Positions 22,010 through 37,100 of a DNA stretch of 64,000 bases are shown in pieces. Origin of the DNA: Methanolobus sp. (GTDB lineage: Archaea > Halobacteriota > Methanosarcinia > Methanosarcinales > Methanosarcinaceae); the NCBI GenBank assembly GCA_030154025.1, contig JASKKT010000002.1:4958-68957 (forward strand), written 5' to 3'. Position numbers and translations under genes: made by a program. The stretch's first letter is position 1, and every line of letters starts with the position of its first letter. The notes under the pieces are model-generated. The model worked only from the letters and a program-made list of their open reading frames with translations. It made no database searches and was not told where the DNA came from.

Positions 22010-22042
22010 AAGGCCGGAATGAGGATTAAAAGATGAGAAAAC

Positions 22043-22979: not shown

Positions 22980-22992
22980 GATGCTTCCCGGT

Positions 22993-23673
22993 TCAGCTTT
23001 CCTGGTCCGCAAACCCGTCTTTTTTAGATGATACGCCAAGCATCAGCACTGCAAATTTCCCTGCTGTTCCGGCAAGCAGATTTATTACATGAAGGGATAA
23101 CATCCCCACCGGTAAGGCAGAGAAAAAAGCGATCAGGGAAAGCTCCGATGAGTAAGGATGGAAACCAGCCTGGTGGGGACCAGAGTCCAGGGCATACCCT
23201 ATCAGGGGTGTCAGGAACAGTAGCACTGTCATTGTTATCATGAACAGGGATACACCCAGCGAGAATACTCCCAGAGGGAATTTCAGCAACAAGAACAGCA
23301 GGGCCTTCCATGATACAGGGTTTTTCAGCCTTGACACCCAGTTTTCAAGGACACTGTCCGGCTTAGTCACAGTGTGGGACATCGGTGGTATTTTCACATC
23401 CAGAAGCCATTCTGCAAGCTGCCGTTCAAAAGACGCCATTTCCCACCATGCAAGGAAAACAAGCAGCAGTATAGGAATACCCAGCCAGATGCCCAGCAGG
23501 TGGAATCCCAGCGACAGACCTGTTACCAGGAACACAAAATAAGCCGTTCCAAGAGGGAATGTGAACAGCAGGTAAAGGAAGTTAAGGTATGTCTGCTTCC
23601 TGAAAGCCACAGCTACGAAATCACGCAGGTGCCTTCTGAGAAGGCTGAAGGCTGTGTTGGCTCTCCCAAACAT
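22993..23673 (-). CDS. Polytopic membrane protein resembling the 'putative sensor' domain family (PF13796-like)
   Basis: 226 aa with two pairs of long TM helices. The YLNFLYLLFTFPLGTAYFVFLVTGLSLG block resembles the membrane 'sensor' module found at the N-termini of some histidine kinases. Confidence 0.5.
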   Translation of the reverse strand: MFGRANTAFSLLRRHLRDFVAVAFRKQTYLNFLYLLFTFPLGTAYFVFLVTGLSLGFHLLGIWLGIPILLLVFLAWWEMASFERQLAEWLLDVKIPPMSHTVTKPDSVLENWVSRLKNPVSWKALLFLLLKFPLGVFSLGVSLFMITMTVLLFLTPLIGYALDSGPHQAGFHPYSSELSLIAFFSALPVGMLSLHVINLLAGTAGKFAVLMLGVSSKKDGFADQES

Positions 23674-23814: not shown

Positions 23815-24051
23815 TCAGGCACCAAACTCCCGGATGCGCCCTGGCCTCCTGACAAGGAAGTATATCAGGGCACCAATCAGGTGAGTGAGGAGGATTATCA
23901 ATATCCATATCAGCTTGTCGTTGCCTGTTGATGGTTCCTTTGTTGCGCAGTCTATGAGCATCCATATCCAGAAAAGGGTCCCTATTATGCCTGCCCCGAA
24001 AAATAGGAAGAAGAGCAAAAAGGGAATTCCTATGAACAATGCATCGAACAT
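23815..24051 (-). CDS. PLD-nuclease N-terminal (PLDc_N) domain small membrane protein
   Basis: 78 aa with two TM segments. WIWMLIDCATKEP....KLIWILIILL..LIGALIYFLV is the PLDc_N signature. It lies 27 nt downstream of the module A permease. Confidence 0.7.
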   Translation of the reverse strand: MFDALFIGIPFLLFFLFFGAGIIGTLFWIWMLIDCATKEPSTGNDKLIWILIILLTHLIGALIYFLVRRPGRIREFGA

Positions 24052-24078: not shown

Positions 24079-25314
24079 TCATTCATGCCTCAGGGCATCC
24101 ACAGGATTCATCTTTGCAGCTTTGTTCGCCGGATATACACCTGCCACCAGCCCGACAATGATCGAGACAAAGACACCGATAAAGATCATGTTCAGCGGGA
24201 ACACGTGAGGCATTCCCATGGCACTCACAACTGCATAAGCTCCAAGTACTCCTAGTGCCGTACCGAAGATGCCACCAATAAGGCCCACTACCATGGATTC
24301 CACGATAAACATCGTGAGAACTTCCTTGTTCTTATATCCAAGCGACTTCATGATGCCTATCTCGCTGGTCCTCTCAGTAACTGTTACCAGCATGATGTTC
24401 ATGATACCTATCGAGCCCACAATGAGTGATATCAGTGCGACTGCCGTCAGCAAGGAACTGAGGGCTGCAGACATCTGGTCGACCTGCTCCAGTATTTCCT
24501 CCTGGTTCAGAAGGGAATAGGGCTTTGCGTCCTCGTTGTCGATATCGCGTGCCGGGACACCGAGATTCCTGGCAAGCCTGCTGTCGACCTCATCGGTTAC
24601 ATCGGAAATGGATTCCATGTTCTCTGCAGCAGCGAAGAAACCCCAGTAATAATCCTCCCCCATGATCTCGTTCATAGTGGAGATCGGGATGAATATACGG
24701 ACATCGGACTCTATGCCGCTCTGGACAAAGGATGTCTCGGGGCTGGCAATTATGCCCTTGACCTTGAAATTCTGGGTCACTGTCTCGCCGTTTGCCTTTA
24801 CAAAGGTCATCTGGACCGTGTTCTTCTCCGAGATTGTCCTGCCGAACTTCTCGTATGCCACATCGTGACCCAGCACAGCCACATACTTGTCCTTATCAGT
24901 GAGGAAACTGCCCGATTCCATCCGGATATTGGCCACTTCCTCATAGTCCTCGTTCACACCCTGCACCGATATCTGCCGGGTAGTTGAAAGGTATTTCACC
25001 TCAGCCACCTGCTGGCTTACGGGAGACACGCCCGTTATCCCGGGGGTGCTCTTCACAAGCTCGAGTTCGTTATCATGAAGCAGATTAGAGGTCTTGCTCT
25101 GGATGATGATGAAGTTGTTACCGACAGAACCTATCTCCTCGGTAAAGTACTGGCTGAAACTTGCTCCCAGCGATACATTGGCTATGACCGCGGCAATGCC
25201 TATAATGATCCCCAGGGTCGTGAGCGCCGAGCGCATTTTTGCGCTTCCGATGCTTCCAAGGGCTATCCTTATTGAGTGCTTCAGGCTCAGCATAGGGTAA
25301 ACTCCTTCGCTCAC
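24079..25314 (-). CDS. ABC transporter permease, MacB/FtsX family (module A)
   Basis: 411 aa. N-terminal TM (ALTTLGIIIGIAAVIANVSLG), a roughly 220-aa extracytoplasmic domain, three C-terminal TMs and the FtsX-family end GVYPANKAAKMNPVDALRHE. Confidence 0.9.
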   Translation of the reverse strand: MSEGVYPMLSLKHSIRIALGSIGSAKMRSALTTLGIIIGIAAVIANVSLGASFSQYFTEEIGSVGNNFIIIQSKTSNLLHDNELELVKSTPGITGVSPVSQQVAEVKYLSTTRQISVQGVNEDYEEVANIRMESGSFLTDKDKYVAVLGHDVAYEKFGRTISEKNTVQMTFVKANGETVTQNFKVKGIIASPETSFVQSGIESDVRIFIPISTMNEIMGEDYYWGFFAAAENMESISDVTDEVDSRLARNLGVPARDIDNEDAKPYSLLNQEEILEQVDQMSAALSSLLTAVALISLIVGSIGIMNIMLVTVTERTSEIGIMKSLGYKNKEVLTMFIVESMVVGLIGGIFGTALGVLGAYAVVSAMGMPHVFPLNMIFIGVFVSIIVGLVAGVYPANKAAKMNPVDALRHE

Positions 25315-26558
25315 TTGTTACTCTGCTTCTTACGCCTGTAGAGAGCAACAGCAGGAAGACCGACCAGCAACGCCAGGCCGATGAATGTCAGTGCAAGAGT
25401 ACTGGTATTGCCTGAATCGCTCTGAACCGTGTTTACATTACGTACGCCTACCTGGTCGCTATGGCTGTTCACACCGTTCTTGTAATCGACCTCGATCGTT
25501 ACCGCTGAAGATGATCCATTGCCGGAGTCCCTGGCCTTTATCTGGATGGTGAACAGCTCATCGGCATTCATGGAGCCGATATAGTATTCCTCCGGGGAGA
25601 ATGCGATATCATCAGATACCAGTCTCACACTGACCGAATTGAGGGTATTAGGATGACTGTTGGCCACATCGAACTCGAAAACACCCTCACCGTCGGTAAG
25701 TATCAGGGGTTTGGAAGGGATCACCTTTACAGCTGAGGAATCGATCCTGACCGGTATCCTCCAGTTGTTATTGTAGGCGTGGGAGTTGCCTACCATGTAA
25801 AAGTCCAGGTAGTAGGTGCCATCCTCTGTGTTATTATCAATCCTGATATTATAGTTGAGAGTAATGGAATCTCCCGGACCAATGATGCCTGAGCCTGTAT
25901 AGATGTCACTGGTGACCGATATCCCGTCAATCCCCCTGAGGGATGCGGACTGGACCCTTGCATTGGTGTCGTAATCCTTGCCATCGATGGTAACTGTGCT
26001 GGTGGTGGCGGTATTTTTGAGAGTGAAGCTCACAGTACCCCTGTCACCTGGCATGAAGACAGAAGGGTCGCTGGATATCTCGCTGAGCTGGATAGTACCC
26101 TTGCTGTCAAAAGTGTCGGAGCCTACCCTGAGGGAAACAGTTTTCTTGAACCAGGCGTCCCCGTCATCAGCCTTATAGTAGATGTCGATGTTGCCGGTCC
26201 CGACCTTTGCGTTCCCGTCCACGAAGAGGCGGTACTCGTGCACCACTGCTTTCTCTGGTGCCAGTATGCCTATAGACTTCACAGCATTGCTTTCTGAATC
26301 CAGTGAGAACGGATATTCCGGCTCAATTTTCAGTGAAACAGCATCCGCGCGGCCGTACCCGGTGTTCTCAACTTTGACCCGGACATCCACATATTTGCCT
26401 ATCTCGGCAGGATATGGGTCGTAATCCAGTACATCCACTCTCAGATTCGCACCGGAACTTGCAGATACCGGTGTGAATAATGCAAGTATCATTCCAAGGC
26501 AGACTAAAGAGCCTATGATCTTTCGTATAATATCGCTTGCCCCAGTCATTAGAATCAC
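25311..26558 (-). CDS. Secreted, C-terminally membrane-anchored protein with three tandem Ig-like (COG1361/CARDB-type) domains (module A)
   Basis: 415 aa with a signal peptide, three beta-rich units of about 100 aa and a C-terminal TM plus basic tail (ALYRRKKQSNK). A 4-nt overlap with the permease and a 1-nt gap from the ATPase. Confidence 0.75.
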   Translation of the reverse strand: MILMTGASDIIRKIIGSLVCLGMILALFTPVSASSGANLRVDVLDYDPYPAEIGKYVDVRVKVENTGYGRADAVSLKIEPEYPFSLDSESNAVKSIGILAPEKAVVHEYRLFVDGNAKVGTGNIDIYYKADDGDAWFKKTVSLRVGSDTFDSKGTIQLSEISSDPSVFMPGDRGTVSFTLKNTATTSTVTIDGKDYDTNARVQSASLRGIDGISVTSDIYTGSGIIGPGDSITLNYNIRIDNNTEDGTYYLDFYMVGNSHAYNNNWRIPVRIDSSAVKVIPSKPLILTDGEGVFEFDVANSHPNTLNSVSVRLVSDDIAFSPEEYYIGSMNADELFTIQIKARDSGNGSSSAVTIEVDYKNGVNSHSDQVGVRNVNTVQSDSGNTSTLALTFIGLALLVGLPAVALYRRKKQSNK

Positions 26559-26559
26559 T

Positions 26560-27273
26560 TCAGTTATTTTTTATGTACCCGTCTTTTATGTGCACTACCC
26601 GGTCCACATATTTTTCCATCTCAGGGTCGTGGGTGATCATCACTATTGTGCATCCGTTGCGATGCAATTCCGAGAATATGCCCAGTATCTCCTCACTGGT
26701 CTTTGAATCAAGGTTCCCGGTAGGTTCGTCGGCAAGGATTAGGGAAGGCTCATTTATCAGGGATCTGGCTATAGCGACCCTCTGGCGCTGCCCTCCGGAG
26801 AGCTCGGTAGGCCTGTGGTCCATGCGGTCATCAAGACCGACCAGCTTTAACAGGTCTTTAGCCCTTTGCGGAGAATTGTGCCCTTTCCTTGAATTGGAGT
26901 AGGTCGGAAGCAGCACGTTCTCGTATGCACTTAAGCGTGGTATCAGGTTGAAGCTCTGGAAAACGAAACCAATCTCAAAACCCCGGAGCTCGGCGAGCTC
27001 GTTATCGGAGATGGCAAGTGTATCCTTGCCCATGAGCACGACCTTACCGCTTGTGGGCCTGTCCAGGCAGCCTATCATGTTCATCAGGGTGCTCTTTCCC
27101 GAGCCTGAGGGCCCCATTATTGCAACGAATTCACCCTTTTTAACGCAGAGATCGATCCCGTGAAGGATAGGTACTTCTATATCCCCGAGGCGATAGCTCT
27201 TCCTGAGATCACAAATATCGATTACAATATCATTGCCTTCTGCAACTGAACGATCCAAGTCCTTGCCAACCAT
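26560..27273 (-). CDS. ABC transporter ATP-binding protein, MacB/LolD-type (module A)
   Basis: Walker A GPSGSGKST, Q-loop, signature LSGGQRQRVAIARSL, Walker B ILADEPTGNLD. The ATG at 27273 is preceded by GAGGT; the track start is 27321. Confidence 0.9.
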   Translation of the reverse strand: MVGKDLDRSVAEGNDIVIDICDLRKSYRLGDIEVPILHGIDLCVKKGEFVAIMGPSGSGKSTLMNMIGCLDRPTSGKVVLMGKDTLAISDNELAELRGFEIGFVFQSFNLIPRLSAYENVLLPTYSNSRKGHNSPQRAKDLLKLVGLDDRMDHRPTELSGGQRQRVAIARSLINEPSLILADEPTGNLDSKTSEEILGIFSELHRNGCTIVMITHDPEMEKYVDRVVHIKDGYIKNN

Positions 27274-27400
27274 GCATATACCTCTAGTATCCAGTCGGAA
27301 AACTCGTCTATTTTTCGACAAGTCAGACTATTCGATATAAGTACTTAAAGCTTTCTATAAATCGACGGGTTGGTCCAATAAATAAAAGAAATGCATAATA

Positions 27401-28615
27401 TCACTCGTGCCTGAGAGCTTCCACCGGATCCAGGCTGGCAGCCCTGCTGGCCGGATAGACACCTGCAATAAGCCCGACAATTACCGATATGATAAAGCCC
27501 AGGAAGATCAGATACACCGGGAAGACGCGGGGGATATCAAGATAAGTCTCGACCGCAAAGGACCCTGCCATTCCGAGCAGGGTTCCCAGAATACCTCCGA
27601 TGACGCCCACAACAATGGATTCAAGCATGAAGAGCGTCAGGATATCGGACCTTGTGTAGCCCAGGGATTTCAGCAGGCCAATCTCCTTCGTTCTTTCGGT
27701 CACGGTCACCAGCATGATGTTCATAATGCCGATGGAACCCACAAGCAGGGCCACCAGGGCTATGATAGTTATCAGTATGGTTAGGGAATTGGAGAGCATA
27801 TCGAGTTGCTCAAGGATGTCCGCCTGATTGAAGATGCGGTACGGTTTCGCATCCTCATTGTCAATATCACGTGCCGGAACACCAAGATTCCTTGCGAGGC
27901 GCCTGTTCACCTCTTCTGAGACCGGCCTTACGGACTCCGCACTGGCGGTCTTTGCCGAAAAGCCGCTATAATCTTCCACCCCGAGGATCTCGTTCATGGT
28001 CCGGATAGGGATATAGATAGCCACGTCCCTGTCAGGTCCGCCCTGGACAAAGGTGTTATCCTCACCTTCCAGTACTCCCTTGACCCTGAACTTCTGGGTC
28101 ACAGTGGTGCCATCGTTCCTGCGGAAAGTTATATCGATATAGTTCTTGACAGGGACATCCCTCCCGAATTTTTCCTCGGCCACCTCCTTCCCCAGGACTG
28201 CCACATACCGGTCCTTGTCTGTGAGGAAACTTCCGGATGCAACAGGCAGGTTGGATATCTCCTGGGCATCCGCACTTACCCCCTGCACATCTATCTGCCG
28301 GGTAGCTGACATGTAAGTGACGGCAGCAGTCTGCTGGTTGAAGGCTGAGGCGCCCACCACCCCAGGCGTGTTCCTGATCACTTCAAGCTGGGCATCGTAG
28401 AATATATTCACATCCTGGCTGTAGATGATAATGAAATTAGAGCCAAGAGAGCCAAGCTCATCAGTGAAGTACTGGTTAAAGCTTGTACCCAAGGAAACAT
28501 TGGCAACCACTGCAGCCACTCCTATGATTATCCCAAGCATGGTAAGGGCCGAACGCAGCTTTGCGCTCCTGATGCTGCCAAGTGCTATGACCAGTGCCTG
28601 CCTGATATCCATCAT
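27401..28615 (-). CDS. ABC transporter permease, MacB/FtsX family (module B, distal)
   Basis: 404 aa with the same architecture as 24079-25314, ending GVYPASRAASLDPVEALRHE. Confidence 0.9.
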   Translation of the reverse strand: MMDIRQALVIALGSIRSAKLRSALTMLGIIIGVAAVVANVSLGTSFNQYFTDELGSLGSNFIIIYSQDVNIFYDAQLEVIRNTPGVVGASAFNQQTAAVTYMSATRQIDVQGVSADAQEISNLPVASGSFLTDKDRYVAVLGKEVAEEKFGRDVPVKNYIDITFRRNDGTTVTQKFRVKGVLEGEDNTFVQGGPDRDVAIYIPIRTMNEILGVEDYSGFSAKTASAESVRPVSEEVNRRLARNLGVPARDIDNEDAKPYRIFNQADILEQLDMLSNSLTILITIIALVALLVGSIGIMNIMLVTVTERTKEIGLLKSLGYTRSDILTLFMLESIVVGVIGGILGTLLGMAGSFAVETYLDIPRVFPVYLIFLGFIISVIVGLIAGVYPASRAASLDPVEALRHE

Positions 28616-28616
28616 C

Positions 28617-29831
28617 CTACTCCTTCCTCAGCGCTTCAACGGGATCCATCCTTGCAGCCTTGTTGGCAGGGTAGACCCCTGCAACAAGGCCCACGCCTAC
28701 AGCCATCACAAAACCTATTGCTATCTGTCCTGCAGGGAAAATATTGGGCAGCTCAAGATAACTGTTTACCAGGAGAGCGGCAGCAACTCCCAGAGTTACT
28801 CCAAGTATCCCACCTATCAGTCCCACTATCATCGACTCTATGATGAATAATGTCAGAATATCCTTCTTTGTGAAACCCAGTGCCTTCATCAGGCCGATCT
28901 CCCTTGTCCTTTCAGCAACAGTGACCAGCATGATATTCATTATCCCGATAGAGCCTACAATGAGAGAGATAAGGGCAACTGAGGTCAGAAGGGCTGTTAA
29001 GGCTGCTGATAACTGGCCTGTCTGTTCCAGTATCTCAAGCTGGTCAAAGAGCACATAGGGTTTTGCATCATCGTTCTCAAGGTCCCTGTTGGGTACTCCA
29101 AGGCTGCGGGCCAGACGCCTGTCTATCTCATCCCCGGTTGTTCCAACAAGCTCCAGGCTCTCAGCCTTGATGAAGAAACCTCCGTAATAATCAATGCCCA
29201 GTATTTCGTTCATGGTCTCAATGGGTATGAAAATCCGGATCTCAGGTTCAACACCGGTCTGTGCAAAAGTCGTGTTGGGATCCTGTATCACACCTTTGAC
29301 TATGAACTTCTGGGTGACGACACCCCCGTCCTCACGCCGGAATGTGATCTCTATGGGGTTCTTTACTGATATCTTCTTATCGAACTTCTCATTGGCAACT
29401 TCCGCACCCAGCACGGCAACATACCTGTCATTATCGGTCAGGAACTCACCTGACTCCATCCTGATGTTCGCTACCTCGTCATAGTCCTCGTTCACCCCCT
29501 GAATATCGATCTGCCTCGACGTGGAAAGATATGTCACCCTCGCCATCTGCTGGTTTATAGGAGATGCACCGGCAACACCGGGGGTATTCCTTATGAGATC
29601 AAGCTGGTTATCATAGAAGATATTGGTGTTCTGACTGTAGATAACAATGAAATTGGAGCCTACAGCACCTATCTCGTCAGTGAAGTACTGGTTGAAGCTG
29701 GCACCCAGAGTAACATTGGCGATCACAGCTGCAACACCTATAACGATGCCTAGGGTCGTGAGGGCCGACCTGAGCTTGGAACTGCCTATGCTTCCCAGGG
29801 ATATACCCAAAGACTGCTTGAGGCTCAGCAT
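28617..29831 (-). CDS. ABC transporter permease, MacB/FtsX family (module B, proximal)
   Basis: 404 aa with the same architecture, ending GVYPANKAARMDPVEALRKE. A 1-nt gap separates it from the next permease. Confidence 0.9.
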   Translation of the reverse strand: MLSLKQSLGISLGSIGSSKLRSALTTLGIVIGVAAVIANVTLGASFNQYFTDEIGAVGSNFIVIYSQNTNIFYDNQLDLIRNTPGVAGASPINQQMARVTYLSTSRQIDIQGVNEDYDEVANIRMESGEFLTDNDRYVAVLGAEVANEKFDKKISVKNPIEITFRREDGGVVTQKFIVKGVIQDPNTTFAQTGVEPEIRIFIPIETMNEILGIDYYGGFFIKAESLELVGTTGDEIDRRLARSLGVPNRDLENDDAKPYVLFDQLEILEQTGQLSAALTALLTSVALISLIVGSIGIMNIMLVTVAERTREIGLMKALGFTKKDILTLFIIESMIVGLIGGILGVTLGVAAALLVNSYLELPNIFPAGQIAIGFVMAVGVGLVAGVYPANKAARMDPVEALRKE

Positions 29832-29842
29832 TGGTCAGGCAC

Positions 29843-31093
29843 CTATTCTTTATTCTTCCTGCGCCTGTACATCATATAGCCTACGACAGCGAGTGCCGCA
29901 AGCAGTATCACGGCCAGCGCAATACCAGGACCGTTGTCATCCCGTACTTCAACACTGCGCAGCTGCCGGGTGTCTACCACAGAGGAGTGCTGATTGACAC
30001 CGTTCCTGTAATTGGCGATAATGGTCATATCTCTCGGGGAGAATGATTCATTGTCAGCAGAAGCCGCTTCGAACTGGATGGTAAAGAGCTCGTCAGGATC
30101 CATGGAACCTATGAAATATTCTGATGGAGAGAACTCTATGCCTTCGGCCTGGAGGCGCACGCTCACGGAGGAGAGCCTGTTGGGATGGATGTTGGCGACA
30201 TCGAACTCAAGAGTGCCTGCACCGTTCTCGAGGACCAGAGGGCTTGAAGGTATGACCCTGACAGAGGACGAGTCGATCCTTACAGGAATCCTCCAGTTGT
30301 TGCTTAAAGCATGGGAGTTGCCCTCAACAGCAAGGTAAAGATAATATGTCCCGTCCTCAACTTCATCGCCCACCCGGATATTGTATGTGAGGTTAACAGA
30401 CTCCCCCGGCCCGATAATGCCGCTGCCGTAATATGTGCCTGTTGTGACCTCTATGCCATCGGTACTCTCAAGGGAGGCAGACTGTATCCTGGCATTGGTG
30501 TCAAACTCTTCTCCTCCCATCACCACTGTCGGCGAGGTGGCTGCGTTCACCAGAGTGAGCCTGATAATACCCCTGTCACCGGGCATGAATACATCGGGTT
30601 CCATTACAGGACTTCCCTGAAGCTGTACGCTGCCCCTGCTGTTAAAGGTGCTTAACCCGACCCTTATATCGAATTCATCTTTGTACCAGATGCCTTCATT
30701 GCCTACCCTGTACCACACTTCTATAGTTTCAACGCCGTCCCTTGCATTCTCATCCACAAACAGGCGGTATTCATGGACTGCCGCTCTCTCGGGGTTCAGT
30801 ACTCCTGTAGTCTTGTTGGCATTCGCAGGTGCATCCAGGCTGAAAGGATATTCCGGCACCAATCGTACTGCCACATTTTCCGCTCTTGAGAAACCGATGT
30901 TCTCTATCTTGACCCATACGGTCACGTATTCCCCTATCTCTGCAGGGACAGGCTGGTACTGCAATATGCTTACCTTCAGGTCCGCCCCATTTGCGGCCGC
31001 TGCAGGCGTGCAGATCAAAGCAGATACTAAGACGAGCCCGATTACCCAGGCAGACATCGTGTACATTTTCCGGTAACTGAATGACACTGACAT
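29843..31093 (-). CDS. Secreted, C-terminally anchored triple Ig-like (COG1361/CARDB-type) protein (module B)
   Basis: 416 aa and collinear with the module A paralogue. Shared blocks are HEYRLFVD, PDVFMPGDRG, DTNAR.QSASL, YGSGIIGPG, EDGTYYL, NNWRIPVRIDSS, EFDVAN, SVSVRL and DELFTIQ. The C-terminus is NGPGIALAVILLAALAVVGYMMYRRRKNKE. Confidence 0.75.
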   Translation of the reverse strand: MSVSFSYRKMYTMSAWVIGLVLVSALICTPAAAANGADLKVSILQYQPVPAEIGEYVTVWVKIENIGFSRAENVAVRLVPEYPFSLDAPANANKTTGVLNPERAAVHEYRLFVDENARDGVETIEVWYRVGNEGIWYKDEFDIRVGLSTFNSRGSVQLQGSPVMEPDVFMPGDRGIIRLTLVNAATSPTVVMGGEEFDTNARIQSASLESTDGIEVTTGTYYGSGIIGPGESVNLTYNIRVGDEVEDGTYYLYLAVEGNSHALSNNWRIPVRIDSSSVRVIPSSPLVLENGAGTLEFDVANIHPNRLSSVSVRLQAEGIEFSPSEYFIGSMDPDELFTIQFEAASADNESFSPRDMTIIANYRNGVNQHSSVVDTRQLRSVEVRDDNGPGIALAVILLAALAVVGYMMYRRRKNKE

Positions 31094-31102
31094 ATTTTCT
31101 CC

Positions 31103-31810
31103 TCAGGTTGCACCTATCACCCCATCCTTAAGATGGACAAACCGGTCCGCATATTCCGCAAGACCGGGATCGTGGGTGATCATTATGATCGTTCTTCCCT
31201 TGTTATGGAGATCCGTGAAAATACCCATTATCTCCTTACCACTCTTTGAATCGAGGTTCCCGGTAGGTTCGTCGGCCAGTATAAGAGAAGGATCGTTGAT
31301 CAGGGCCCTGGCAATGGCCACACGCTGCTGCTGGCCGCCTGAGAGCGCCGTTGGCTTGTAGTCCATGCGGTCCTGCAGACCGACCAGCCCAATGAGCTCC
31401 CTTGCCTTTTTCCTGCTGTCTACACCTTCCTTTTTGTTGGCATATGTAGGAAGTTCCACATTCTGGAGAGCACTCAGGCGGGGAACGAGATTGAAGTTCT
31501 GGAACACAAAACCGATCTCAAAACCCCTGAGCCTCGCAAGCTCAGTGTCCGTGAGCCGGCTGACATCCTTACCCATTATCAGGACACTACCACAGGTCGG
31601 CCTGTCCAGGCAGCCTATCATGTTCATCAGGGTGCTCTTTCCGGAACCGGATGGACCCATTATCGCAACGAACTCACCCTTCTTCACAGACAGGTCTATG
31701 CTCTTCAGGATTGGTACTTCCATATCCCCTACCTGATAGCTCTTGCACAGGCTGACAAGTTCAATAACGGATTCTCTTTTATCCGCACCAGTCTCGATCG
31801 ATTCGCCCAT
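31103..31810 (-). CDS. ABC transporter ATP-binding protein, MacB/LolD-type (module B)
   Basis: Walker A GPSGSGKST, LSGGQQQRVAIARAL, ILADEPTGNLD. A close paralogue of 26560-27273. I prefer the ATG at 31810 (MGESIE...); the track start is 31867. Confidence 0.9.
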   Translation of the reverse strand: MGESIETGADKRESVIELVSLCKSYQVGDMEVPILKSIDLSVKKGEFVAIMGPSGSGKSTLMNMIGCLDRPTCGSVLIMGKDVSRLTDTELARLRGFEIGFVFQNFNLVPRLSALQNVELPTYANKKEGVDSRKKARELIGLVGLQDRMDYKPTALSGGQQQRVAIARALINDPSLILADEPTGNLDSKSGKEIMGIFTDLHNKGRTIIMITHDPGLAEYADRFVHLKDGVIGAT

Positions 31811-32062
31811 TGTTATTCCCCGCGTATAACACTGAGTCCACCGTTTAATACGGCTTATCCCGGACACTTTTTAAAAATCAAATGGCATGGTGAATGACTG
31901 CAGATAAAAGAGAACTGTTCTGAAATATAAACTGTTGCTTTGGGCTGCACTTCAGACAGATTTGTGACAAAATATAAATATATCTTTCACGTAAAGAATT
32001 TGTCTATTAATCGTCGAGTCTGAATATAAAAATATTAAACCTGATTTCGCGGAGCTAGAAAC

Positions 32063-32680
32063 ATGCTGGAAGTATTAACCGATCCTAACGGGTTCTTCAA
32101 AAGGAAAAGTAATGAGCCAATAGAATTCAAAATGCCCATAGTAATTATTCTTATAATGGCGATAGTCGCGGCAGCCACTGCAGTTATAGTGACGCAGAAC
32201 GTAATGGGAACACTTCCTGAGGAGGCAGCAGCCTTTGCAGGAATAGGCGCTGCGGTGGCAGCCATATTTGCAGTTATCGGGACATTTATAGCATGGGCTA
32301 TCTACGGTGTGATATTCTATGTAATATCGATGCTTTTCCACGGAGAAGGTAGTTTCAAAAGGGTAATGGAATTCGTATCGTATGGATTTATACCCTCTAT
32401 CATAAGTTCCATAGTCAGTGCATTCTACACTTCCAGAGTTTATTCTAACATCGACTTCTCTAACCCCGAGCTTATACAGGATGCACTGCTGGCCGACCCG
32501 ACCCTCAGGATCGCCGGGATAATAGGGATCATATTCACACTCTGGAGCGCTAACATATGGATATTCGCACTTGCCCATTCCAGGAACCTGTCCGTAAAGA
32601 ATGCAGCTATCGTTGTGGGAGTACCCATCCTGCTCAGCATACTTTACTCAATATACCAACTCGGGATCTTTGGTGCATGA
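32063..32680 (+). CDS. Yip1-domain integral membrane protein (module C leader gene)
   Basis: 205 aa. N-terminal MLEVLTDPNGFFKRK followed by five hydrophobic helices, as in Yip1/DUF1282 proteins. An ATGA overlap links it to the next gene. Confidence 0.65.
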   Translation: MLEVLTDPNGFFKRKSNEPIEFKMPIVIILIMAIVAAATAVIVTQNVMGTLPEEAAAFAGIGAAVAAIFAVIGTFIAWAIYGVIFYVISMLFHGEGSFKRVMEFVSYGFIPSIISSIVSAFYTSRVYSNIDFSNPELIQDALLADPTLRIAGIIGIIFTLWSANIWIFALAHSRNLSVKNAAIVVGVPILLSILYSIYQLGIFGA

Positions 32681-33984
32681 AAGTGAGATCGTGCCTGAGA
32701 ATATTCCTTGCAGCCATCCTTATCGTGGCCGCGTTTTCCCCCTCTGCACTTGGGGCCACCAGCAACAGGGAAGTGCGCCCGACTGTCAGCCTGACCTATG
32801 ATATAGAACCCTCGGTCTTCATGCCAGGAGACACGGGCATCATTACTGTCACCCTTCAGAATATGGCTACCGGCAGAGTGTACATCACAGAGGATGATGA
32901 GACGCTGAGCATGAACGCATATATCGCCAGCGCGACCCTTGGAGGGAACGGTAATTTCGAGGTGCTTGACAGCAGCCACACCAATGTCGGCCTGCTTGGG
33001 CCCCAGGACACCATCAAGCTCTCCTTCAATGTCAGGGCAAAGAACACAGCTTCTGCAGGAACGCATTTCCTGAATCTGCAACTTGTGGGCGGGAGCAACA
33101 TGTACAATCTTAATTACAGGATCCCTGTCAAGGTAGATGACCGCGACCTGCAGATCATCCTCCCTAACATGCCTTCCACGCTCATGAACGAGGTTTCCAC
33201 CATCAGTGTGGAGGTCGTCAACAGAAGGCCGAATGGAGTTACAAGTGTCATTGTGACTCCTGAAGCTGAAGGGATGACGTTCACACCCTCCGAATACTTC
33301 ATCGGGTCCATCCCTGCAGGAAACAAATCAACAGCGACATTCACTCTGAACACTATGCACAGCAGCCCGGAGAAGCGGGATGTATCGTTCGTTGTCTCTT
33401 ACTTCAACGGGGATAACCTGCGCCAGACCGGTAAGCTCACAAGGCAGGTGGAGGTAATAGGCCAGCACTCCCTGATATTCACATCCCTGGAGGTATACAG
33501 GGCAGGGAACAGGTATACGGTCTCAGGGGACCTGAACAATTTCGGCATCACTGATGCAAAGAATGTGATGATATCAGTGGCAGAGTCTGACAAGGTATTA
33601 GCTGTTCAGCCCTATGCGCGGTATTACATCGGGACCCTTGAGACCGATGACTTCAGCAGTTTCGAACTGTCTGCGCAGGCAGTGTCAGGCAATGTCGCAA
33701 GCATACCAGTGATCATCGAGTTCAGGGACCCAAACAATGCCTACATGTCCATCCGGGAGAATATCTCTGTCAGCACCAACAGTATCGCTTCTGCTTCTGC
33801 AACCTCAGGAGACGAGAAGGACAGTCCCTTCATGCTCTGGGCAGTTGCAGGAATCCTTTCAGTGGGAATAGCTGCACTGATATATAATTCATGGAAGAAG
33901 CGCAGAGAAGATGAAGGCGACAGGGGTCAGCAAGAGCAGGAAGATGAAGACGAGGATGAAGACGAAGATCTCCCTGACAACTGA
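32677..33984 (+). CDS. Secreted, C-terminally anchored multi-Ig-like (COG1361/CARDB-type) protein with an acidic cytoplasmic tail (module C)
   Basis: Starts MKVRSCLRIFLAAILIVAAFSPSALG (signal peptide). It shares EPSVFMPGDTG, YIASATLGG, NLNYRIPVKVDD and SEYFIGS blocks with the A/B paralogues. A C-terminal TM is followed by KKRREDEGDRGQQEQEDEDEDEDEDLPDN. Confidence 0.75.
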   Translation: MKVRSCLRIFLAAILIVAAFSPSALGATSNREVRPTVSLTYDIEPSVFMPGDTGIITVTLQNMATGRVYITEDDETLSMNAYIASATLGGNGNFEVLDSSHTNVGLLGPQDTIKLSFNVRAKNTASAGTHFLNLQLVGGSNMYNLNYRIPVKVDDRDLQIILPNMPSTLMNEVSTISVEVVNRRPNGVTSVIVTPEAEGMTFTPSEYFIGSIPAGNKSTATFTLNTMHSSPEKRDVSFVVSYFNGDNLRQTGKLTRQVEVIGQHSLIFTSLEVYRAGNRYTVSGDLNNFGITDAKNVMISVAESDKVLAVQPYARYYIGTLETDDFSSFELSAQAVSGNVASIPVIIEFRDPNNAYMSIRENISVSTNSIASASATSGDEKDSPFMLWAVAGILSVGIAALIYNSWKKRREDEGDRGQQEQEDEDEDEDEDLPDN

Positions 33985-33995
33985 ATGGTGCGGAT

Positions 33996-34682
33996 ATGCC
34001 AGAGACCATTGTAGAAATAAAGAAAGTGACAAAGATCTATACCCTCGGAGCGAACAAGATCTATGCGCTCAATAAGGTCAGTGCAAAGATAGAGAAGGGG
34101 GATTTTGTCACTATAATGGGTTCCTCGGGCTCCGGGAAGAGCACCCTGCTTAACATGCTCGGCTGCCTTGACCTGCCCACCAGCGGCAAGGTGCTGATCA
34201 ATAATACGGACCTCTCCAACCTTGATGATGACGGGCTCACTTCCCTGAGAAGGAACAATATAGGTTTTATCTTCCAGCAGTTCAACCTGATCCAGACACT
34301 GACGGCCGTTGAGAATGTGGAGATACCCATGATATTCAATGGCGCATCCCCGCAAAAGCGCAGAAAGAGAGCACTTAAGCTGCTACAGAAAGCCCAGCTT
34401 CCCCCGGAGTATGCTCACCACAAGCCCAATGAGCTCTCAGGAGGCCAGCAGCAGCGTGTGGCCATTGCCAGGGCTCTTGCGAACAACCCGCCCATACTTC
34501 TTGCCGATGAGCCCACAGGTAACCTGGATACAAAGACAGGCCATGGGGTAATGGAACTCCTGAGAGAGCTGAACCAAGCCGGCACCACTGTAATTGTGGT
34601 CACACACGACCCCAGGATGGAAGAGTATTCCCGCACCACAATAAGACTGCAGGACGGAGAGATAGTTAATGAAGATACCTGA
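33996..34682 (+). CDS. ABC transporter ATP-binding protein, MacB/LolD-type (module C)
   Basis: 228 aa with Walker A GSSGSGKST, LSGGQQQRVAIARAL and LLADEPTGNLD. Confidence 0.9.
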   Translation: MPETIVEIKKVTKIYTLGANKIYALNKVSAKIEKGDFVTIMGSSGSGKSTLLNMLGCLDLPTSGKVLINNTDLSNLDDDGLTSLRRNNIGFIFQQFNLIQTLTAVENVEIPMIFNGASPQKRRKRALKLLQKAQLPPEYAHHKPNELSGGQQQRVAIARALANNPPILLADEPTGNLDTKTGHGVMELLRELNQAGTTVIVVTHDPRMEEYSRTTIRLQDGEIVNEDT

Positions 34683-35844
34683 TCCCCTGAAAAATAACAT
34701 GTACGCCGAGCTTGCCAGGAGGAACCTGAAGAGGCAGGCAGTCCGCACGATGCTTGCAGCCATCGGGATCATCATAGGGGTCATAGCCATATCCTCCATG
34801 GGCATCCTCGGGAACAGCCTGAAGCTCTCGGTCACTGATTCCTTTTCCGATATAGGGGACAAGATAATAGTCTATCCGGCCCCGGGGGAAGACTACATCA
34901 CTGATAAACAGGTAGACCAGATAAAAAAGGTCAGCAACATCGAAAGCGTGATACCTGTTAGATCAGGCGGAGAGGTGGTCGAGTATAAAAAAGGCGGGAC
35001 CACTTTCCAGTACTACGTTTCGGTCTATGACCTGAAAAAGGAGGATCTTGACAAGCTTGCAGACCTCGAGCAGGGACGCTATTTCAAACCGGGGTCAACT
35101 GAGTGCGTTGTAGGTTCCGGTATTGCCAAGAACCTGGACCTGAGTCTCGGGCAGAAGATAGAGATAGACGGCACGAATTTACGGGTTGTCGGCATACTCA
35201 GGGAGAGGGGCCTTGGATTTGACATCAGCACCGACAGCGGGGTATTCACATCCTCGGAAATGTATGAGAAGCTGTATCCTGATGCTGATGACGGCTACGG
35301 CACGGTCATAGTTGTAGTGAAGGATATCAATAAAATAGATCCCGTCATGGAGGGCATTGAGGAGCGTCTCAACAAAAAGGAAGACACCGTCACGGTCTTT
35401 GCCACGAATTCAATAACCGAGAGCCTTGACAGTGTGTTCAGGTCAGTTTCCCTCTTCCTGATGGGCATAGGCTCGATATCACTGCTTGTTGCAGGCGTGA
35501 GCATACTTAACGTAATGCTCATGTCAACCATGGAAAGGACAAAAGAGATAGGCATAATGAAAGCCGTGGGAGCTTCAAGAAAAGACATACTGAAGATGTT
35601 CCTGCTTGAAGCATTGTTCCTGGGACTCATAGCCAGCACCGCAGGGGCAATACTGACCCTCGGAGGCAGTTATCTCATAATGGCACTGCTTGTCAAGAAC
35701 ACATCTTACCTGCTGACATTCTCAAGCATGTTCTATGTGCTGGAAGGCTTCCTTTTCGGCATAGCCACAAGCCTTCTTGGGGGCATGTACCCTGCATGGA
35801 AAGCCTCGATGATGAAGCCGCTGGATGCGCTCAGATACGAATGA
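34669..35844 (+). CDS. ABC transporter permease, MacB/FtsX family (module C, first)
   Basis: 391 aa. N-terminal TM, an extracytoplasmic domain, three C-terminal TMs, and an end of GMYPAWKASMMKPLDALRYE. It overlaps the ATPase gene by 14 nt. Confidence 0.9.
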   Translation: MKIPDPLKNNMYAELARRNLKRQAVRTMLAAIGIIIGVIAISSMGILGNSLKLSVTDSFSDIGDKIIVYPAPGEDYITDKQVDQIKKVSNIESVIPVRSGGEVVEYKKGGTTFQYYVSVYDLKKEDLDKLADLEQGRYFKPGSTECVVGSGIAKNLDLSLGQKIEIDGTNLRVVGILRERGLGFDISTDSGVFTSSEMYEKLYPDADDGYGTVIVVVKDINKIDPVMEGIEERLNKKEDTVTVFATNSITESLDSVFRSVSLFLMGIGSISLLVAGVSILNVMLMSTMERTKEIGIMKAVGASRKDILKMFLLEALFLGLIASTAGAILTLGGSYLIMALLVKNTSYLLTFSSMFYVLEGFLFGIATSLLGGMYPAWKASMMKPLDALRYE

Positions 35845-35942
35845 GAGTGACATGAAAGAACAAATGATGAGTCCCTAAGCCTGCTTTCCTCGCAGCCGTC
35901 CTTTTCCTGAGAATGAGGAACAGGTAGATACAGGTGTCCTGA

Positions 35943-37100
35943 ATGAGGTATGAACTCTTCATAGCACTTCGGCATATAAAGGCACGAAAGCGGCAGACCA
36001 TCCTCTCGGTTGCAGCCATCGGGATAGCAGTTATGATCCTTATGGTCTCCCAGGCTTTTATGGCAGGGTTCACACAGGAGATATATCAGACCACAGTTGC
36101 CAACCTGCCACATGTTGTTGTATCACCCCAGGAAGGCGAAGACTACATACACCTCTATGGGAACATCGTCAGGGAAGTCAACAGCATAGAGGGCGTGGTG
36201 GCTTCCTCCCCATACCTTATAGGTGAGGCTTCTTTCCGGTACAGGGACAAGACCGCGAATGCAGCACTAAAGGGAGTCGTACCCCCGGAGGAGGAAGCAG
36301 TAGCACATGTGAGCAAGGACGTGATAGAAGGTGATTTTGAAGAGCTTGCATACTCAAGAAGGGGGATCGTGATAGGCGATGATCTCGCCCGCAGGCTTGG
36401 ACTGCAGATGGGAGACAGTGTGGAAGTATCTTTCCCCAATGCGAACACACTATCCCTGAGGGTTATAGCTATTTACGATACTGGCACGCCTGCAGATGAA
36501 AGCCTGATATATACATCCCTTGGGACGGCACAGGATTTCTACGGCACTGCAGACGTCATCAACGGCATTTCACTGAGGCTGGCGGACTTCAATCAAGACA
36601 GGGAAGTAGCTTCCATCATAAGGGAAGAAGGTTACAGGGCAGATGGCTGGACCCAGAACAATCCGGAGATACTGCAGACCCTGGCAATAGAGAGATCCTC
36701 CAACCAGGTCACCCTGGGATTCATACTCCTTATTGCATCTTTCGGGGTCGTGAGCACCCTGAACATGGTGGTCATGAGCAAGCTGAAAGAGACAGGCATC
36801 CTGATGGCAATGGGAATGAGCAGGTCCGGGATAAGGCTTGTCTTCCTGCTTGAGAGCGGGATACTGGGACTTGCAGGTGCTGTACTGGGAGCCCTTGCAG
36901 GAACTGTCATAGCACTTTCGGTAGGCAGCTATCCTCTGCCTGAAGGAGTGTACGGTATCAGCTCGATACCTGTAATTGTACGTCCGACGGATGTTTTCCT
37001 GATCATAACCGTTGTCTTCCTGTTGAACCTCATAGCAGGCATCTACCCGGCACAGCGCGCAGCAAGCCTGGACCCTGTAAAGGCCATATCAACAAGGTGA
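35943..37100 (+). CDS. ABC transporter permease, LolC/E-like FtsX family (module C, second)
   Basis: 385 aa with a LolE-type N-terminus MRYELFIALRHIKARKRQT, ending GIYPAQRAASLDPVKAI. Confidence 0.85.
   Translation: MRYELFIALRHIKARKRQTILSVAAIGIAVMILMVSQAFMAGFTQEIYQTTVANLPHVVVSPQEGEDYIHLYGNIVREVNSIEGVVASSPYLIGEASFRYRDKTANAALKGVVPPEEEAVAHVSKDVIEGDFEELAYSRRGIVIGDDLARRLGLQMGDSVEVSFPNANTLSLRVIAIYDTGTPADESLIYTSLGTAQDFYGTADVINGISLRLADFNQDREVASIIREEGYRADGWTQNNPEILQTLAIERSSNQVTLGFILLIASFGVVSTLNMVVMSKLKETGILMAMGMSRSGIRLVFLLESGILGLAGAVLGALAGTVIALSVGSYPLPEGVYGISSIPVIVRPTDVFLIITVVFLLNLIAGIYPAQRAASLDPVKAISTR

Follow-up and report, generated by a model that had tools for sequence, protein, structure and literature searches.

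Results

The stretch analysed here, referred to as the window, is 64,000 nucleotides of a contig from a Methanolobus sp. (JASKKT010000002.1). According to its ORF list, positions 24079 to 35844 hold three paralogous modules side by side, each composed of an ATPase, an Ig-like protein and one or two permeases with MacB_PCD and FtsX domains (Table 1). A first-pass annotation had described three adjacent modules with tight junctions, and the ORF coordinates, gaps and overlaps match that description. In module A, the ATPase gene is followed by a 1-nt gap, the Ig gene, a 4-nt overlap and a single permease gene; in module B, a 9-nt gap separates the ATPase and Ig genes, an 11-nt gap precedes permease 1 and a 1-nt gap precedes permease 2. 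Module C begins with a Yip1-family gene that overlaps the Ig gene by 4 nt, after which come an 11-nt gap, the ATPase gene, a 14-nt overlap and the permease gene. Two starts were set within longer ORFs: the module A ATPase is read from the ATG at 27273 (the longest ORF begins at a TTG at 27321), and the long module C Ig ORF, opening at 32557, adds upstream sequence to a protein whose signal peptide starts at MKVRS. Modules A and B are 54-65% identical, and C shares 27-48% identity with either. Some 20 other Methanolobus genomes carry the same array, which puts its occurrence far beyond chance.

Table 1. Genes of the three modules and their surroundings, with positions counted from the start of the window
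Feature	Position	Strand	Evidence
Module A ATPase, LolD/MacB-type NBD	26560..27273	-	ABC_tran 4.9e-35; LolD 5e-72, MacB 3.4e-70
Module A Ig-like protein (Ig-A)	25311..26558	-	CARDB 27.5 bits; AF2 pLDDT 83.5
Module A permease, MacB fold	24079..25314	-	MacB_PCD 2.9e-30; FtsX 9.9e-22; 5nik 4.9e-38; TM 1+3
Module B ATPase	31103..31810	-	ABC_tran 3.5e-35; 65% identity to module A ATPase
Module B Ig-like protein (Ig-B)	29843..31093	-	54% identity to Ig-A over 390 aa; CARDB 20.6 bits
Module B permease 1	28617..29831	-	MacB_PCD 6.5e-28; FtsX 2.8e-24; NCBIfam best MacB 2.3e-49
Module B permease 2	27401..28615	-	MacB_PCD 6.3e-31; FtsX 8.5e-22; 62% identity to permease 1
Module C Yip1-family membrane protein	32063..32680	+	Pfam Yip1 3.1e-28; NCBIfam YknW_fam 4.9e-13 (sub-cut-off)
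Module C Ig-like protein (Ig-C)	32677..33984	+	35-37% identity to Ig-A/Ig-B over ~218 aa; AF2 pLDDT 82.1
Module C ATPase	33996..34682	+	ABC_tran 9.2e-36; PDB 1f3o (MJ0796) 7.2e-83
Module C permease	34669..35844	+	MacB_PCD 7.2e-29; FtsX 1.4e-21
LolCE-like permease	35943..37100	+	NCBIfam lolCE 218.7 bits (cut-off 362)
Second LolCE-like permease, no Ig gene	37788..39071	-	FtsX 3.4e-22; MacB_PCD 1.2e-15; lolCE 208 bits
Orphan LolD-like ATPase	43391..44074	-	NCBIfam LolD 287.6 bits (cut-off 307.75)
PLDc_N protein (78 aa, two TMs), immediately 3' of module A permease	23815..24051	-	Pfam PLDc_N 7e-12
Multi-TM 'Putative sensor' (PF13796) protein	22993..23673	-	Pfam 7.4e-28
Response regulator with N-terminal wHTH	22043..22555	-	Response_reg 2.4e-33, HTH_24; synteny conserved
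dCache histidine kinase	20243..22009	-	HATPase_c, HisKA, dCache_1; synteny conserved

Walker A, signature and Walker B motifs are all intact in the module ATPases, whose top-scoring NCBIfam models are LolD and MacB, in keeping with their original assignment. They also match models of the lactococcin-972-type ABC family, and none of the module proteins reaches the cut-off of an NCBIfam Lol model. In PDB searches the nearest solved structure to the module C ATPase is MJ0796 of Methanocaldococcus jannaschii, an archaeal member of the LolD-like clade and a model nucleotide-binding domain that was studied alone. The ATPase match to the Spr0693-0694-0695 type pump (5xu1) scores 2.7e-67.

All five permeases encoded between 24079 and 37100 match MacB_PCD and FtsX in Pfam (E-values 1e-16 to 1e-31). 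Hydropathy places TM1 before an extracytoplasmic stretch and TM2-4 after it, which agrees with the MacB/FtsX layout first proposed except that the extracytoplasmic part spans about 240 aa rather than about 200. The closest solved relatives of the permease are MacB (5nik, 4.9e-38) and Spr0695 (5xu1, 1.3e-32), and the module permeases score 165.7 bits to MacB versus 69.7 bits to LolCE, with only 18-51 bits to FtsX models whose cut-offs are 225-255 (NCBIfam). The single permease of module A presumably forms a homodimer; in module B the two distinct permeases, a pair retained in all B-type loci, suggest a heterodimer. A permease of the 34669-35844 type lies 3' of the C-type ATPase in all related loci.

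The permease at 35943-37100, originally counted with module C, is probably not part of it. It is LolCE-like, is separated by 98 nt from the module C permease, and is missing or displaced in other C-type loci. Its identity is 41% to the permease at 37788-39071 and 26-31% to the module permeases, and it more likely belongs with the former, whose gene shares 4 nt with a LysE gene, and with the ATPase at 43391-44074. This ATPase, 45-46% identical to those of the modules, is a candidate NBD for both LolCE-like permeases.

AF2 models of Ig-A and Ig-C bear out the architecture suggested for these proteins: a signal helix comes first, then three beta-sandwich domains (about 100-117 aa each) and finally a TM helix at the C-terminus. 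The Ig-A domains span residues 39-145, 156-272 and 277-378, with the TM at 389-411; in Ig-C the TM is at 385-410 and the tail is acidic. Ig-B has hydrophobic segments at both its N- and C-terminus by hydropathy. The accompanying CARDB assignment held for Ig-A only, since Ig-B and Ig-C (16.4 bits) fall below the Pfam cut-off of 22.7 bits and Ig-C has no above-threshold Pfam match. In the family alignment, the anchor is a proteinaceous TM segment with a basic tail, no lipobox is conserved, and the best-conserved region is a two-domain core, not the anchor. Relatives of Ig-A are named 'COG1361 S-layer family protein' at NCBI. Foldseek searches with the fold return generic tandem-Ig matches only (TM<0.35), profile searches of the PDB find no sequence relatives, and the alpha-hairpin, lipoyl and beta-barrel domains of membrane-fusion proteins (MFPs) are all missing from the Ig protein. 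The family profile retrieves 3111 clusters (50% identity) at E<=1e-3, 107 of them at E<=1e-30; thus, the family is large and not a lineage oddity. Elsewhere in the window, positions 45407-46666 encode an unrelated anchored protein of CARDB/DUF11 type with no ABC gene as its immediate neighbour.

Conservation of the Ig gene beside an FtsX-type permease had been named beforehand as the point on which a functional pairing would turn, and the loci compared do not refute that idea. Among 71 Methanosarcinales genome loci, every informative one (that is, with sufficient flanking sequence) retains the order ATPase-Ig-permease. All 12 divergent family members that we looked up individually, including those on a Methanospirillum and an Aenigmarchaeota (DPANN) contig, adjoin a MacB_PCD/FtsX permease and an ABC ATPase, in the orders A-I-P, I-A-P, A-P-I and I-SdpI-P-A. 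Linkage that is kept despite reordering speaks for a functional connection and against adjacency that is simply inherited. Modules were duplicated whole: the A-type Ig protein always accompanies an A-type ATPase and permease, and B-type accompanies B-type. Across archaea, the ATPase, Ig and permease genes are passed on together as a unit, and correlations of 0.94-0.96 between their distance matrices over 74 modules indicate one common evolutionary history. No co-variation specific to Ig and permease was found in these modules (partial r(I,P|A)=0.35, r(I,A|P)=0.45, r(A,P|I)=0.65). The Ig protein evolves fastest: its mean p-distance is 0.50, compared with 0.43 (permease) and 0.34 (ATPase). Such a rate could also be expected of a cargo or antigen exposed on the surface.

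Downstream of module A, the placement of the PLDc_N gene is conserved in 23 loci, from genera including Methanolobus, Methanococcoides and Methanohalophilus. The PF13796 gene lies 3' of the module, and on its strand, in Methanolobus, Methanococcoides and the loci L033, L045 and L047. Linkage of the two-component system to the modules is limited to Methanosarcinaceae, and the system is not near the modules in Methanosarcina tandem loci, Methanoperedens, ANME-2, Methanospirillum or Aenigmarchaeota. The module C Yip1 protein scores 49 bits to YknW_fam (NCBIfam cut-off 110), and modules A and B have no Yip1 gene. Yip1 also occurs beside Ig/MacB modules in Methanoperedens and ANME-2 at other positions, giving three different arrangements overall. 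In addition, an SdpI-family gene lies within the Aenigmarchaeota operon (one locus only), a DrrA/ABC-2 exporter is inserted into Methanoperedens operons, and MarR/ArsR-type wHTH genes adjoin five distant Ig/MacB loci. We found no gene for a toxin or bacteriocin precursor beside the modules within the window.

Discussion

We tentatively propose, with a confidence somewhat short of even, that each module is a type VII ABC machine with a dedicated Ig-like subunit that serves in envelope defence, expelling a membrane-active toxin from the cell surface. The MacB-fold permeases and ATPases of the LolD/MacB/MJ0796 clade argue for the type VII ABC machine, and the place of the Ig gene within the operon, separated from its neighbours by 1-11 nt or overlapping them by 4 nt, argues for a dedicated subunit. 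The Yip1, SdpI, wHTH and PLDc_N/'Sensor'/response-regulator/Cache-kinase neighbours suggest a pump against envelope stress or toxic peptides; among the roles first suggested, these genes favour defence or expulsion over extraction of lipids or surface proteins. Bacterial precedent is consistent with this notion, because YknWXYZ and Spr0693-5 are adaptor-dependent MacB pumps that function in cells without an outer membrane and protect against SDP, LL-37 and bacitracin (PMC5985334).

By analogy with MacB, LolCDE and FtsEX, the cytoplasmic NBDs would bind ATP and thereby drive the stalk helices, so that the extracytoplasmic domain of the permease opens and closes (mechanotransmission); the substrate would not pass through the permease from one side of the bilayer to the other. 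From its tethered position next to the permease dimer, the Ig protein would take the adaptor or membrane-fusion role that MacA, YknX and Spr0693 play in bacteria, receiving or guiding the substrate and taking it off the membrane via the space under the S-layer. The three paralogous modules may each handle different substrates, and the PLDc_N, 'Sensor', response-regulator and Cache-kinase genes may control expression under envelope stress.

Module C could be the direct counterpart of yknW-X-Y-Z, with its Ig protein in the YknX adaptor slot. It has the gene order and component number of the four-component system that acts against SDP toxin in Bacillus subtilis and B. amyloliquefaciens (PMC5985334): a Yip1-family protein, a membrane-anchored extracytoplasmic accessory, a LolD/MacB-type ATPase and a MacB-fold permease. 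Both operate in a cell without an outer membrane, and the SdpI-family gene in one related archaeal operon adds to the likeness. The earlier statement that archaea lack such partners was too strong, given the Yip1/YknW-like protein of module C and the LolA-annotated genes that a 2024 preprint reports in ANME/Methanosarcinales genomes. However, the archaeal accessory is a stalk of three Ig-like domains anchored C-terminally, whereas the YknX type is an N-terminally anchored HlyD-type MFP, a difference that counts against the adaptor analogy; modules A and B also lack the Yip1 component, and the archaeal host has an S-layer in place of peptidoglycan. The missing MFP domains, generic Foldseek matches, lack of Ig-permease co-variation and fast Ig evolution likewise count against a dedicated adaptor. 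The original suggestion that the Ig protein is the dedicated extracytoplasmic partner of the ABC proteins is partly supported. Against defence stand the missing adjacent toxin precursor, SdpI in a single locus, a two-component system confined to Methanosarcinaceae and a sub-cut-off YknW score.

MacAB-TolC and Spr0693-0694-0695 are the closest solved relatives in permease fold and ATPase clade and presumably share mechanotransmission, but the archaeal modules have no MFP or TolC, encode the NBD as a separate polypeptide and, in module B, have two distinct permease genes. FtsEX with EnvC, PcsB or CwlO offers another parallel, in which a type VII ABC protein drives a dedicated extracytoplasmic protein instead of transporting a solute. 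Yet the module permeases score poorly against FtsX models and carry a full-size MacB_PCD, and the Ig partner has no coiled-coil or hydrolase domain. We know of no cell-wall polymer in Methanolobus for an FtsEX-type partner to cleave.

Alternatively, the Ig protein may be cargo whose C-terminal anchor is extracted, inserted or positioned, Lol-like, by the MacB-type complex for the S-layer or cell surface, making the modules surface-protein deployment systems. LolCDE, a type VII relative, pulls out membrane-anchored proteins, and its resemblance to the modules extends to high LolD scores and to the two permease genes of module B, like LolC/LolE. The 2024 preprint, the sole mention of such loci that we found, labels similar ANME/Methanosarcinales loci putative LolCDE lipoprotein export with a conserved unknown protein. 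The LolA-annotated genes, the fast evolution and 'S-layer family' name of the Ig protein, and the ATPase matches to the lactococcin-972-type family, a precedent for one cargo per pump, fit as well. We nevertheless consider this reading unlikely: the module permeases resemble MacB far more than LolCE, with no Lol cut-off reached; no LolA or LolB is encoded by the modules and there is no outer membrane; the window's truly LolCE-like permeases (35943-37100 and 37788-39071), part of a better LolCE/LolD-like set, have no Ig neighbour; and the Ig anchor is neither a lipobox nor the most conserved region. A triplicated, one-to-one ATP-driven extractor for one small protein would be uneconomical, and the Yip1, SdpI, DrrAB and regulator context suits defence better.

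It is more doubtful still that the Ig protein simply belongs to the usual surface or adhesion proteins, co-transcribed with, but uncoupled from, a generic MacB-type exporter of an unrelated compound. CARDB/DUF11-type anchored proteins are common in archaea, as the one at 45407-46666 without an adjoining ABC gene illustrates, and the generic Foldseek matches and missing Ig-permease co-variation are as expected. However, the linkage outlasts gene-order changes and whole-module duplications, spans Methanosarcinales, Methanomicrobiales and DPANN, and holds in 12/12 sampled divergent members, usually with the Ig gene between ATPase and permease and codons overlapping or nearly abutting. Finally, it is quite improbable that the modules are mainly sensors, like BceAB for BceS, with the Ig domains as a ligand antenna that lets the ABC complex report an envelope condition to the PF13796 'Sensor' and Cache kinase/response regulator: BceAB-type MacB relatives are established flux sensors (PMC5985334), the regulatory block is conserved immediately 3' of the module on its own strand and wHTH regulators adjoin distant modules. 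Yet the kinase, in contrast to BceS with its intramembrane sensing, has an extracytoplasmic dCache domain of its own, the module surroundings in the five groups listed above lack the two-component system, and the permeases have 4 TMs versus the 10-TM layout of BceB.

As first stated, the Ig-MacB module seems to lack experimental characterisation, and full-text literature searches found none. We regard the pairing of a MacB-type ABC system with an Ig-like protein gene as a genuine and so far uncharacterised variation on type VII ABC systems, with envelope defence as the role that we tentatively favour.

Gene organization and family assignment of the modules

An ORF map of the window, which derives from a Methanolobus species, reproduced the three-operon layout and the junctions described in the first-pass annotation, and the ATPase starts it had given at 27273 and 31810 are sensible ATGs. 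Modules A and B, two of the three side-by-side paralogous ABC units, lie 127 nt apart with TATA-like boxes within this spacer, and an AT-rich stretch of 252 nt separates the divergently oriented modules B and C. Comparison of the module promoters with the upstream regions of the regulators for common operator motifs returned only 9-12-mers at chance level.

Genes of modules A, B and C and their surroundings, with the junction to the next gene
Feature	Position	Strand	Junction to next gene
Module A ATPase	27273-26560	-	1-nt gap
Module A Ig-like protein (Ig-A)	26558-25311	-	4-nt overlap
Module A permease	25314-24079	-	27 nt to PLDc_N gene
PLDc_N protein	23815-24051	-	
PF13796 'Sensor', wHTH response regulator, dCache histidine kinase	20243-23673	-	
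wHTH ORF, 91 aa	22704-22979	+	
PAS kinase	18248-19888		
Module B ATPase	31810-31103	-	9-nt gap
Module B Ig-like protein (Ig-B)	31093-29843	-	11-nt gap
Module B permease, first	29831-28617	-	1-nt gap
Module B permease, second	28615-27401	-	
Module C Yip1	32063-32680	+	4-nt overlap
Module C Ig-like protein (Ig-C)	32677-33984	+	11-nt gap
Module C ATPase	33996-34682	+	14-nt overlap
Module C permease	34669-35844	+	98-nt gap
LolCE-like permease, downstream of module C	35943-37100	+	
LolCE-like permease, convergent	37788-39071	-	4-nt overlap with LysE-family gene
LysE-family exporter	39068-39694		
Orphan LolD-like ATPase	43391-44074	-	
CetZ-type tubulin	44227-45333	-	
DUF11/CARDB-repeat protein	45407-46666	-	
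NAD biosynthesis cluster	46781-49535		
CHASE4 hybrid kinase	52961-55621		

Pfam scans place MacB_PCD (PF12704) full-length in the permeases (profile positions 1-205 of 207, E 1e-16 to 1e-31) and FtsX (PF02687) in every one of them (E 1e-16 to 1e-24), bearing out the MacB/FtsX layout ascribed to them at first reading. Hydropathy gives these 391-411-aa proteins four TMs in a 1+3 arrangement around some 240 extracytoplasmic residues, and their nearest solved relatives are MacB (5nik, 4.9e-38; 5gko, 5lil) and the pneumococcal MacAB-like Spr0695 (5xu1). The ATPases, initially described as MacB/LolD-like, are indeed nucleotide-binding domains of the LolD/MacB/FtsE clade: their top NCBIfam models are LolD, MacB, DarD and FtsE, none reaching an equivalog cut-off, and their top PDB matches are MJ0796, Spr0694 and MacB, with the module C ATPase nearest to MJ0796 (1f3o, 7.2e-83). 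With every defining feature present at the sequence level, the modules are assigned to the type VII ABC transporters (MacB/FtsX fold). From family membership only, we infer that they would work by mechanotransmission, with no transmembrane path for a substrate.

Conservation of the ATPase-Ig-permease linkage

Scanning a genome collection with the Ig-family alignment yielded 71 loci, all in Methanosarcinales, from Methanolobus, Methanomethylovorans, Methanococcoides, Methanosarcina, Methanohalophilus, Methanosalsum, ANME-2 and Methanoperedens. When the ORFs of these loci were compared by BLAST with the window proteins, the ATPase-Ig-permease arrangement was found wherever the flank was long enough. 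About 20 genomes of Methanolobus carry the complete C<-|->B->A array, and Methanosarcina has two modules in tandem. Searching 1.84 billion representatives with the family profile gave 3111 clusters at E<=1e-3, a number that falls to 1294 at <=1e-10 and to 107 at <=1e-30. All 12 of the 12 divergent members whose context we looked up individually adjoin an ABC ATPase and a permease of the MacB_PCD/FtsX type. Their gene orders vary among A-I-P, A-I-P-P, I-A-P, A-P-I and I-SdpI-P-A (A, ATPase; I, Ig protein; P, permease), and neighboring housekeeping genes place one such locus in Methanospirillum and one in Aenigmarchaeota. On the Methanospirillum-like contig (L073) the Ig gene follows the ATPase-permease pair instead of lying between the two. 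The pre-set refutation test, a failure of the Ig genes to be conserved neighbors of FtsX-type permeases, thus went in favor of the first-pass annotation in all informative loci and all 12 divergent members looked up.

The Ig-like proteins

Ig-A and Ig-B are 54% identical, and Ig-C shares 35-37% identity with them over about 218 aa, so that all three are homologous. In AlphaFold2 models of Ig-A (pLDDT 83.5) and Ig-C (82.1), a signal helix is followed by three beta-sandwich domains and a C-terminal TM helix; the tail beyond this helix is basic, and in Ig-C it runs on into an acidic stretch. The family alignment resolves a two-domain core common to all types, to which A/B-type proteins add a distal N-terminal CARDB domain and the C type a membrane-proximal domain. 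A short variant of about 300 aa with two domains, lacking the N-terminal CARDB domain, occurs in ANME-2 (L074/L075) and in P0298-P0360, and the family member of L073 reaches 539 aa with an additional TPR-matching region. The best matches to Ig-A stand at 95% and 83%, and that to Ig-C, from M. chelungpuianus, at 90%. The Ig protein is the fastest-evolving of the three module components.

On the COG1361/CARDB-like identity first proposed for these proteins, the evidence is mixed. The three are homologous and are modeled as beta-sandwiches, and NCBI names their orthologs 'COG1361 S-layer family protein'. Ig-A has a CARDB match above the Pfam cut-off (27.5 bits, cut-off 22.7), whereas Ig-B (20.6 bits) and Ig-C (16.4 bits) fall below it. 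Judged from sequence, the 'S-layer family' label is simply an inherited COG name. Tandem DUF1608 domains, which we take to be the mark of the Methanosarcinales S-layer protein (MA0829 type), had no match in the Ig proteins in Pfam scans, and we reject an S-layer identity for proteins that lack DUF1608, are small and are TM-anchored. We likewise reject the possibility that they are lipoproteins, as the lipobox cysteine is not conserved in the family alignment. No PDB chain matched the Ig profile by sequence at E<=1, and Foldseek comparison of the Ig-A model with the PDB gave only generic tandem Ig, MG or ASH matches (TM<0.35), to ciliary central-pair proteins, integrin legs, alpha-2-macroglobulins and the CfaB pilin, and yielded neither an MFP-like fold nor a lead to function.

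Elsewhere in the window, directly upstream of the CetZ-type tubulin gene, another protein with a signal peptide and a C-terminal TM carries DUF11/CARDB repeats (DUF11 4.3e-17); its sequence is not significantly similar to any of the three Ig proteins. The window also contains the NAD biosynthesis cluster (quinolinate phosphoribosyltransferase, aspartate dehydrogenase and NadA), and beyond that UbiA, an archaeal SAM synthetase and the CHASE4 hybrid kinase, a housekeeping context unrelated to the modules.

A putative LolCDE-like set near module C

The permease downstream of module C, originally counted as its last gene, probably does not belong to it. This protein is LolCE-like (TIGR02212, 218.7 bits) and is 41% identical to the convergent LolCE-like permease (208 bits), compared with only 26-31% to the module permeases. 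In other genomes, it is gone after the C-type permease (Methanomethylovorans L014/L032, L070 and L071) or lies 1.2 kb off (L013 and L033). Together, the LolCE-like scores, the low identity to module permeases and the absence or displacement elsewhere lead us to read module C as a four-gene unit of Yip1, Ig protein, ATPase and permease. The orphan ATPase scores just under the LolD equivalog level (287.6 vs 307.75 bits), and neither it nor either LolCE-like permease has an Ig-like neighbor. These three genes look like a separate, dispersed LolCDE-like set without an Ig partner.

Accessory genes around the modules

Among the three modules, Yip1 (Pfam 3.1e-28; NCBIfam YknW_fam 49.1 bits, cut-off 110) is found in C only, and across archaeal modules it occurs in three different positions. 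Two tandem Yip1 paralogs precede the C-type module in Methanomethylovorans (L014, L015, L025, L028 and L032), where Methanolobus has one, and the ANME-2 operon of L074/L075 reads ATPase-Ig-permease-Yip1 with two 57-aa ORFs ahead of it. In Methanoperedens (L064, L067 and L072), the operon comprises Yip1, a MacB-type ATPase, a DrrA-type ATPase, an ABC-2 permease, the Ig protein and a MacB-type permease, all overlapping or abutting; this embedding of an unrelated DrrAB-like ABC exporter suggests a two-step pathway of export and expulsion. The operon from Aenigmarchaeota, a DPANN lineage (L077, GCA_964428495.1), encodes the Ig protein, an SdpI/DUF1648 membrane protein from the family of the Bacillus subtilis SDP-toxin immunity protein, a MacB-type permease and an ATPase.

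Regulatory genes recur as well. MarR/ArsR-like wHTH genes stand beside five distant loci. Behind the A-type module of Methanosarcinaceae, and on its strand, comes a conserved series of genes, first that of a PLDc_N protein and then those of the PF13796 'Sensor' membrane protein, a response regulator with a wHTH and a histidine kinase with a dCache domain. The last three follow the modules in this orientation in Methanolobus, Methanococcoides, Methanohalophilus and others. The PLDc_N protein (78 aa, two TMs) is kept in place at 23 related loci (51-85% identity), always before the 'Sensor' gene, and might serve in stress sensing or as an additional subunit. On the opposite strand, a small wHTH ORF lies between the Sensor and regulator genes, and the second kinase (PAS) is syntenic in many loci. 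We found no convincing toxin or precursor among small ORFs beside the modules in the window, the sole conserved small ORF being that of the PLDc_N protein, and the small ORFs beside L073, L074 and L078 show no evident mutual similarity by eye.

Discussion

In regard to known systems, the modules are not MacAB-TolC: no module gene encodes a domain of its HlyD/MFP adaptor, and scans of the modules and of flanking genes gave no match to its TolC. Archaea lack an outer membrane. The modules are not FtsEX, since FtsX models give 18-51 bits against cut-offs of 225-255, the extracytoplasmic domain is large and the partner is an Ig stalk, not a coiled-coil hydrolase activator; nor are they BceAB, whose permease has 10 TMs with an extracellular domain between TM7 and TM8, unlike the 4-TM module permeases of 391-411 aa. 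The Haloferax transposon genes hvo_3001/3002, which their paper places nearest copper-uptake-type ABC genes, were judged unrelated. The closest likeness is to YknWXYZ of B. subtilis, whose makeup and gene order recur in module C: a Yip1 protein whose similarity to YknW is below the family cut-off, the Ig-like protein in the slot of the MFP adaptor YknX, the ATPase and the MacB-type permease. YknWXYZ protects against the SDP peptide toxin, and similar adaptor-dependent Gram-positive MacB pumps protect against AS-48, LL-37 and bacitracin (PMC5985334). By analogy, the modules would work most like YknWXYZ or a Gram-positive MacAB pump with an accessory subunit of unrelated fold.

Gene context favors a reading of the modules as stress-regulated pumps that clear the cell surface, with the Ig stalk as extracytoplasmic accessory subunit, a reading to which we give slightly less than an even chance. 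It draws on the mirroring of yknWXYZ with the Ig protein in the adaptor slot, on the recurrence of Yip1, on the SdpI-family gene in Aenigmarchaeota, on the inserted DrrAB-like exporter and the wHTH genes at distant loci, on the PLDc_N/'Sensor'/regulator/kinase set that follows the A-type module, and on the several paralogous modules per genome. Multiple paralogs per genome are usual for detoxification pumps. The same reading is weakened because the Ig protein differs from an MFP both in its fold and in its anchoring, has no solved sequence relative and evolves fastest, and because partial correlations revealed no Ig-permease-specific co-variation and no toxin gene was seen nearby. A more specific proposal, which we regard as rather doubtful, is that the C-terminally anchored Ig stalk is an archaeal adaptor that would sit on the extracytoplasmic domain of the MacB-type permease and connect membrane and S-layer, an equivalent of the tripartite or Gram-positive MacAB pump that archaea would have built from an unrelated fold, widespread in Methanosarcinales, Methanomicrobiales and DPANN.

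Alternatively, a Lol-like reaction may extract or deploy the Ig protein as its cargo; this is the main rival reading and an unlikely one. LolA-annotated genes are present in related genomes according to a 2024 preprint. The modules themselves are not LolCDE, as their permeases reach 70-78 bits against a LolCE cut-off of 362, compared with 219 and 208 bits for the better LolCE-like pair next door, which has no Ig gene. It is decidedly improbable that the Ig protein is merely co-transcribed with the ABC genes and not coupled to them: linkage maintained through rearrangement, duplication and inter-order transfer is strong evidence for a functional unit. Across 74 modules the distance matrices of ATPase, Ig protein and permease correlate at 0.94-0.96, and mirror-tree and partial correlations do not single out the Ig-permease pair. 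Least probable is a mainly sensory role.

The modules are real, conserved and unstudied, and their components are individually familiar. In keeping with the first-pass statement that no experimental characterization existed, a full-text literature search found none; the sole mention was in the 2024 preprint, which notes for ANME-2/-3 a 'putative LolCDE lipoprotein export locus' accompanied by 'a conserved unknown protein', and variable versions of it in methanogens. The paper on the VARTIG Ig module does not mention an ABC linkage. If the Ig protein is a conserved, dedicated subunit, two misleading annotations would be corrected, 'S-layer family protein' for the Ig proteins and 'LolCDE lipoprotein export' for the ABC genes. 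MJ0796 is a classic model ABC ATPase and an archaeal member of this clade, and ATPases of its type, a model ABC domain for decades, would gain a physiological context. Methanosarcina, with its tandem module copies and genetic tractability, makes the hypothesis directly testable.

To our knowledge, type VII ABC transporters are understood in bacteria only, through partners such as MacA-TolC, LolA, EnvC/PcsB and YknX, and we know of nothing established about their roles in archaea. A dedicated Ig subunit would represent a new way for an S-layer-bounded cell to couple cytoplasmic ATP hydrolysis to work beyond its membrane, and the modules would constitute a probable envelope-defense system in methanogens and methanotrophs (ANME and Methanoperedens) alike.
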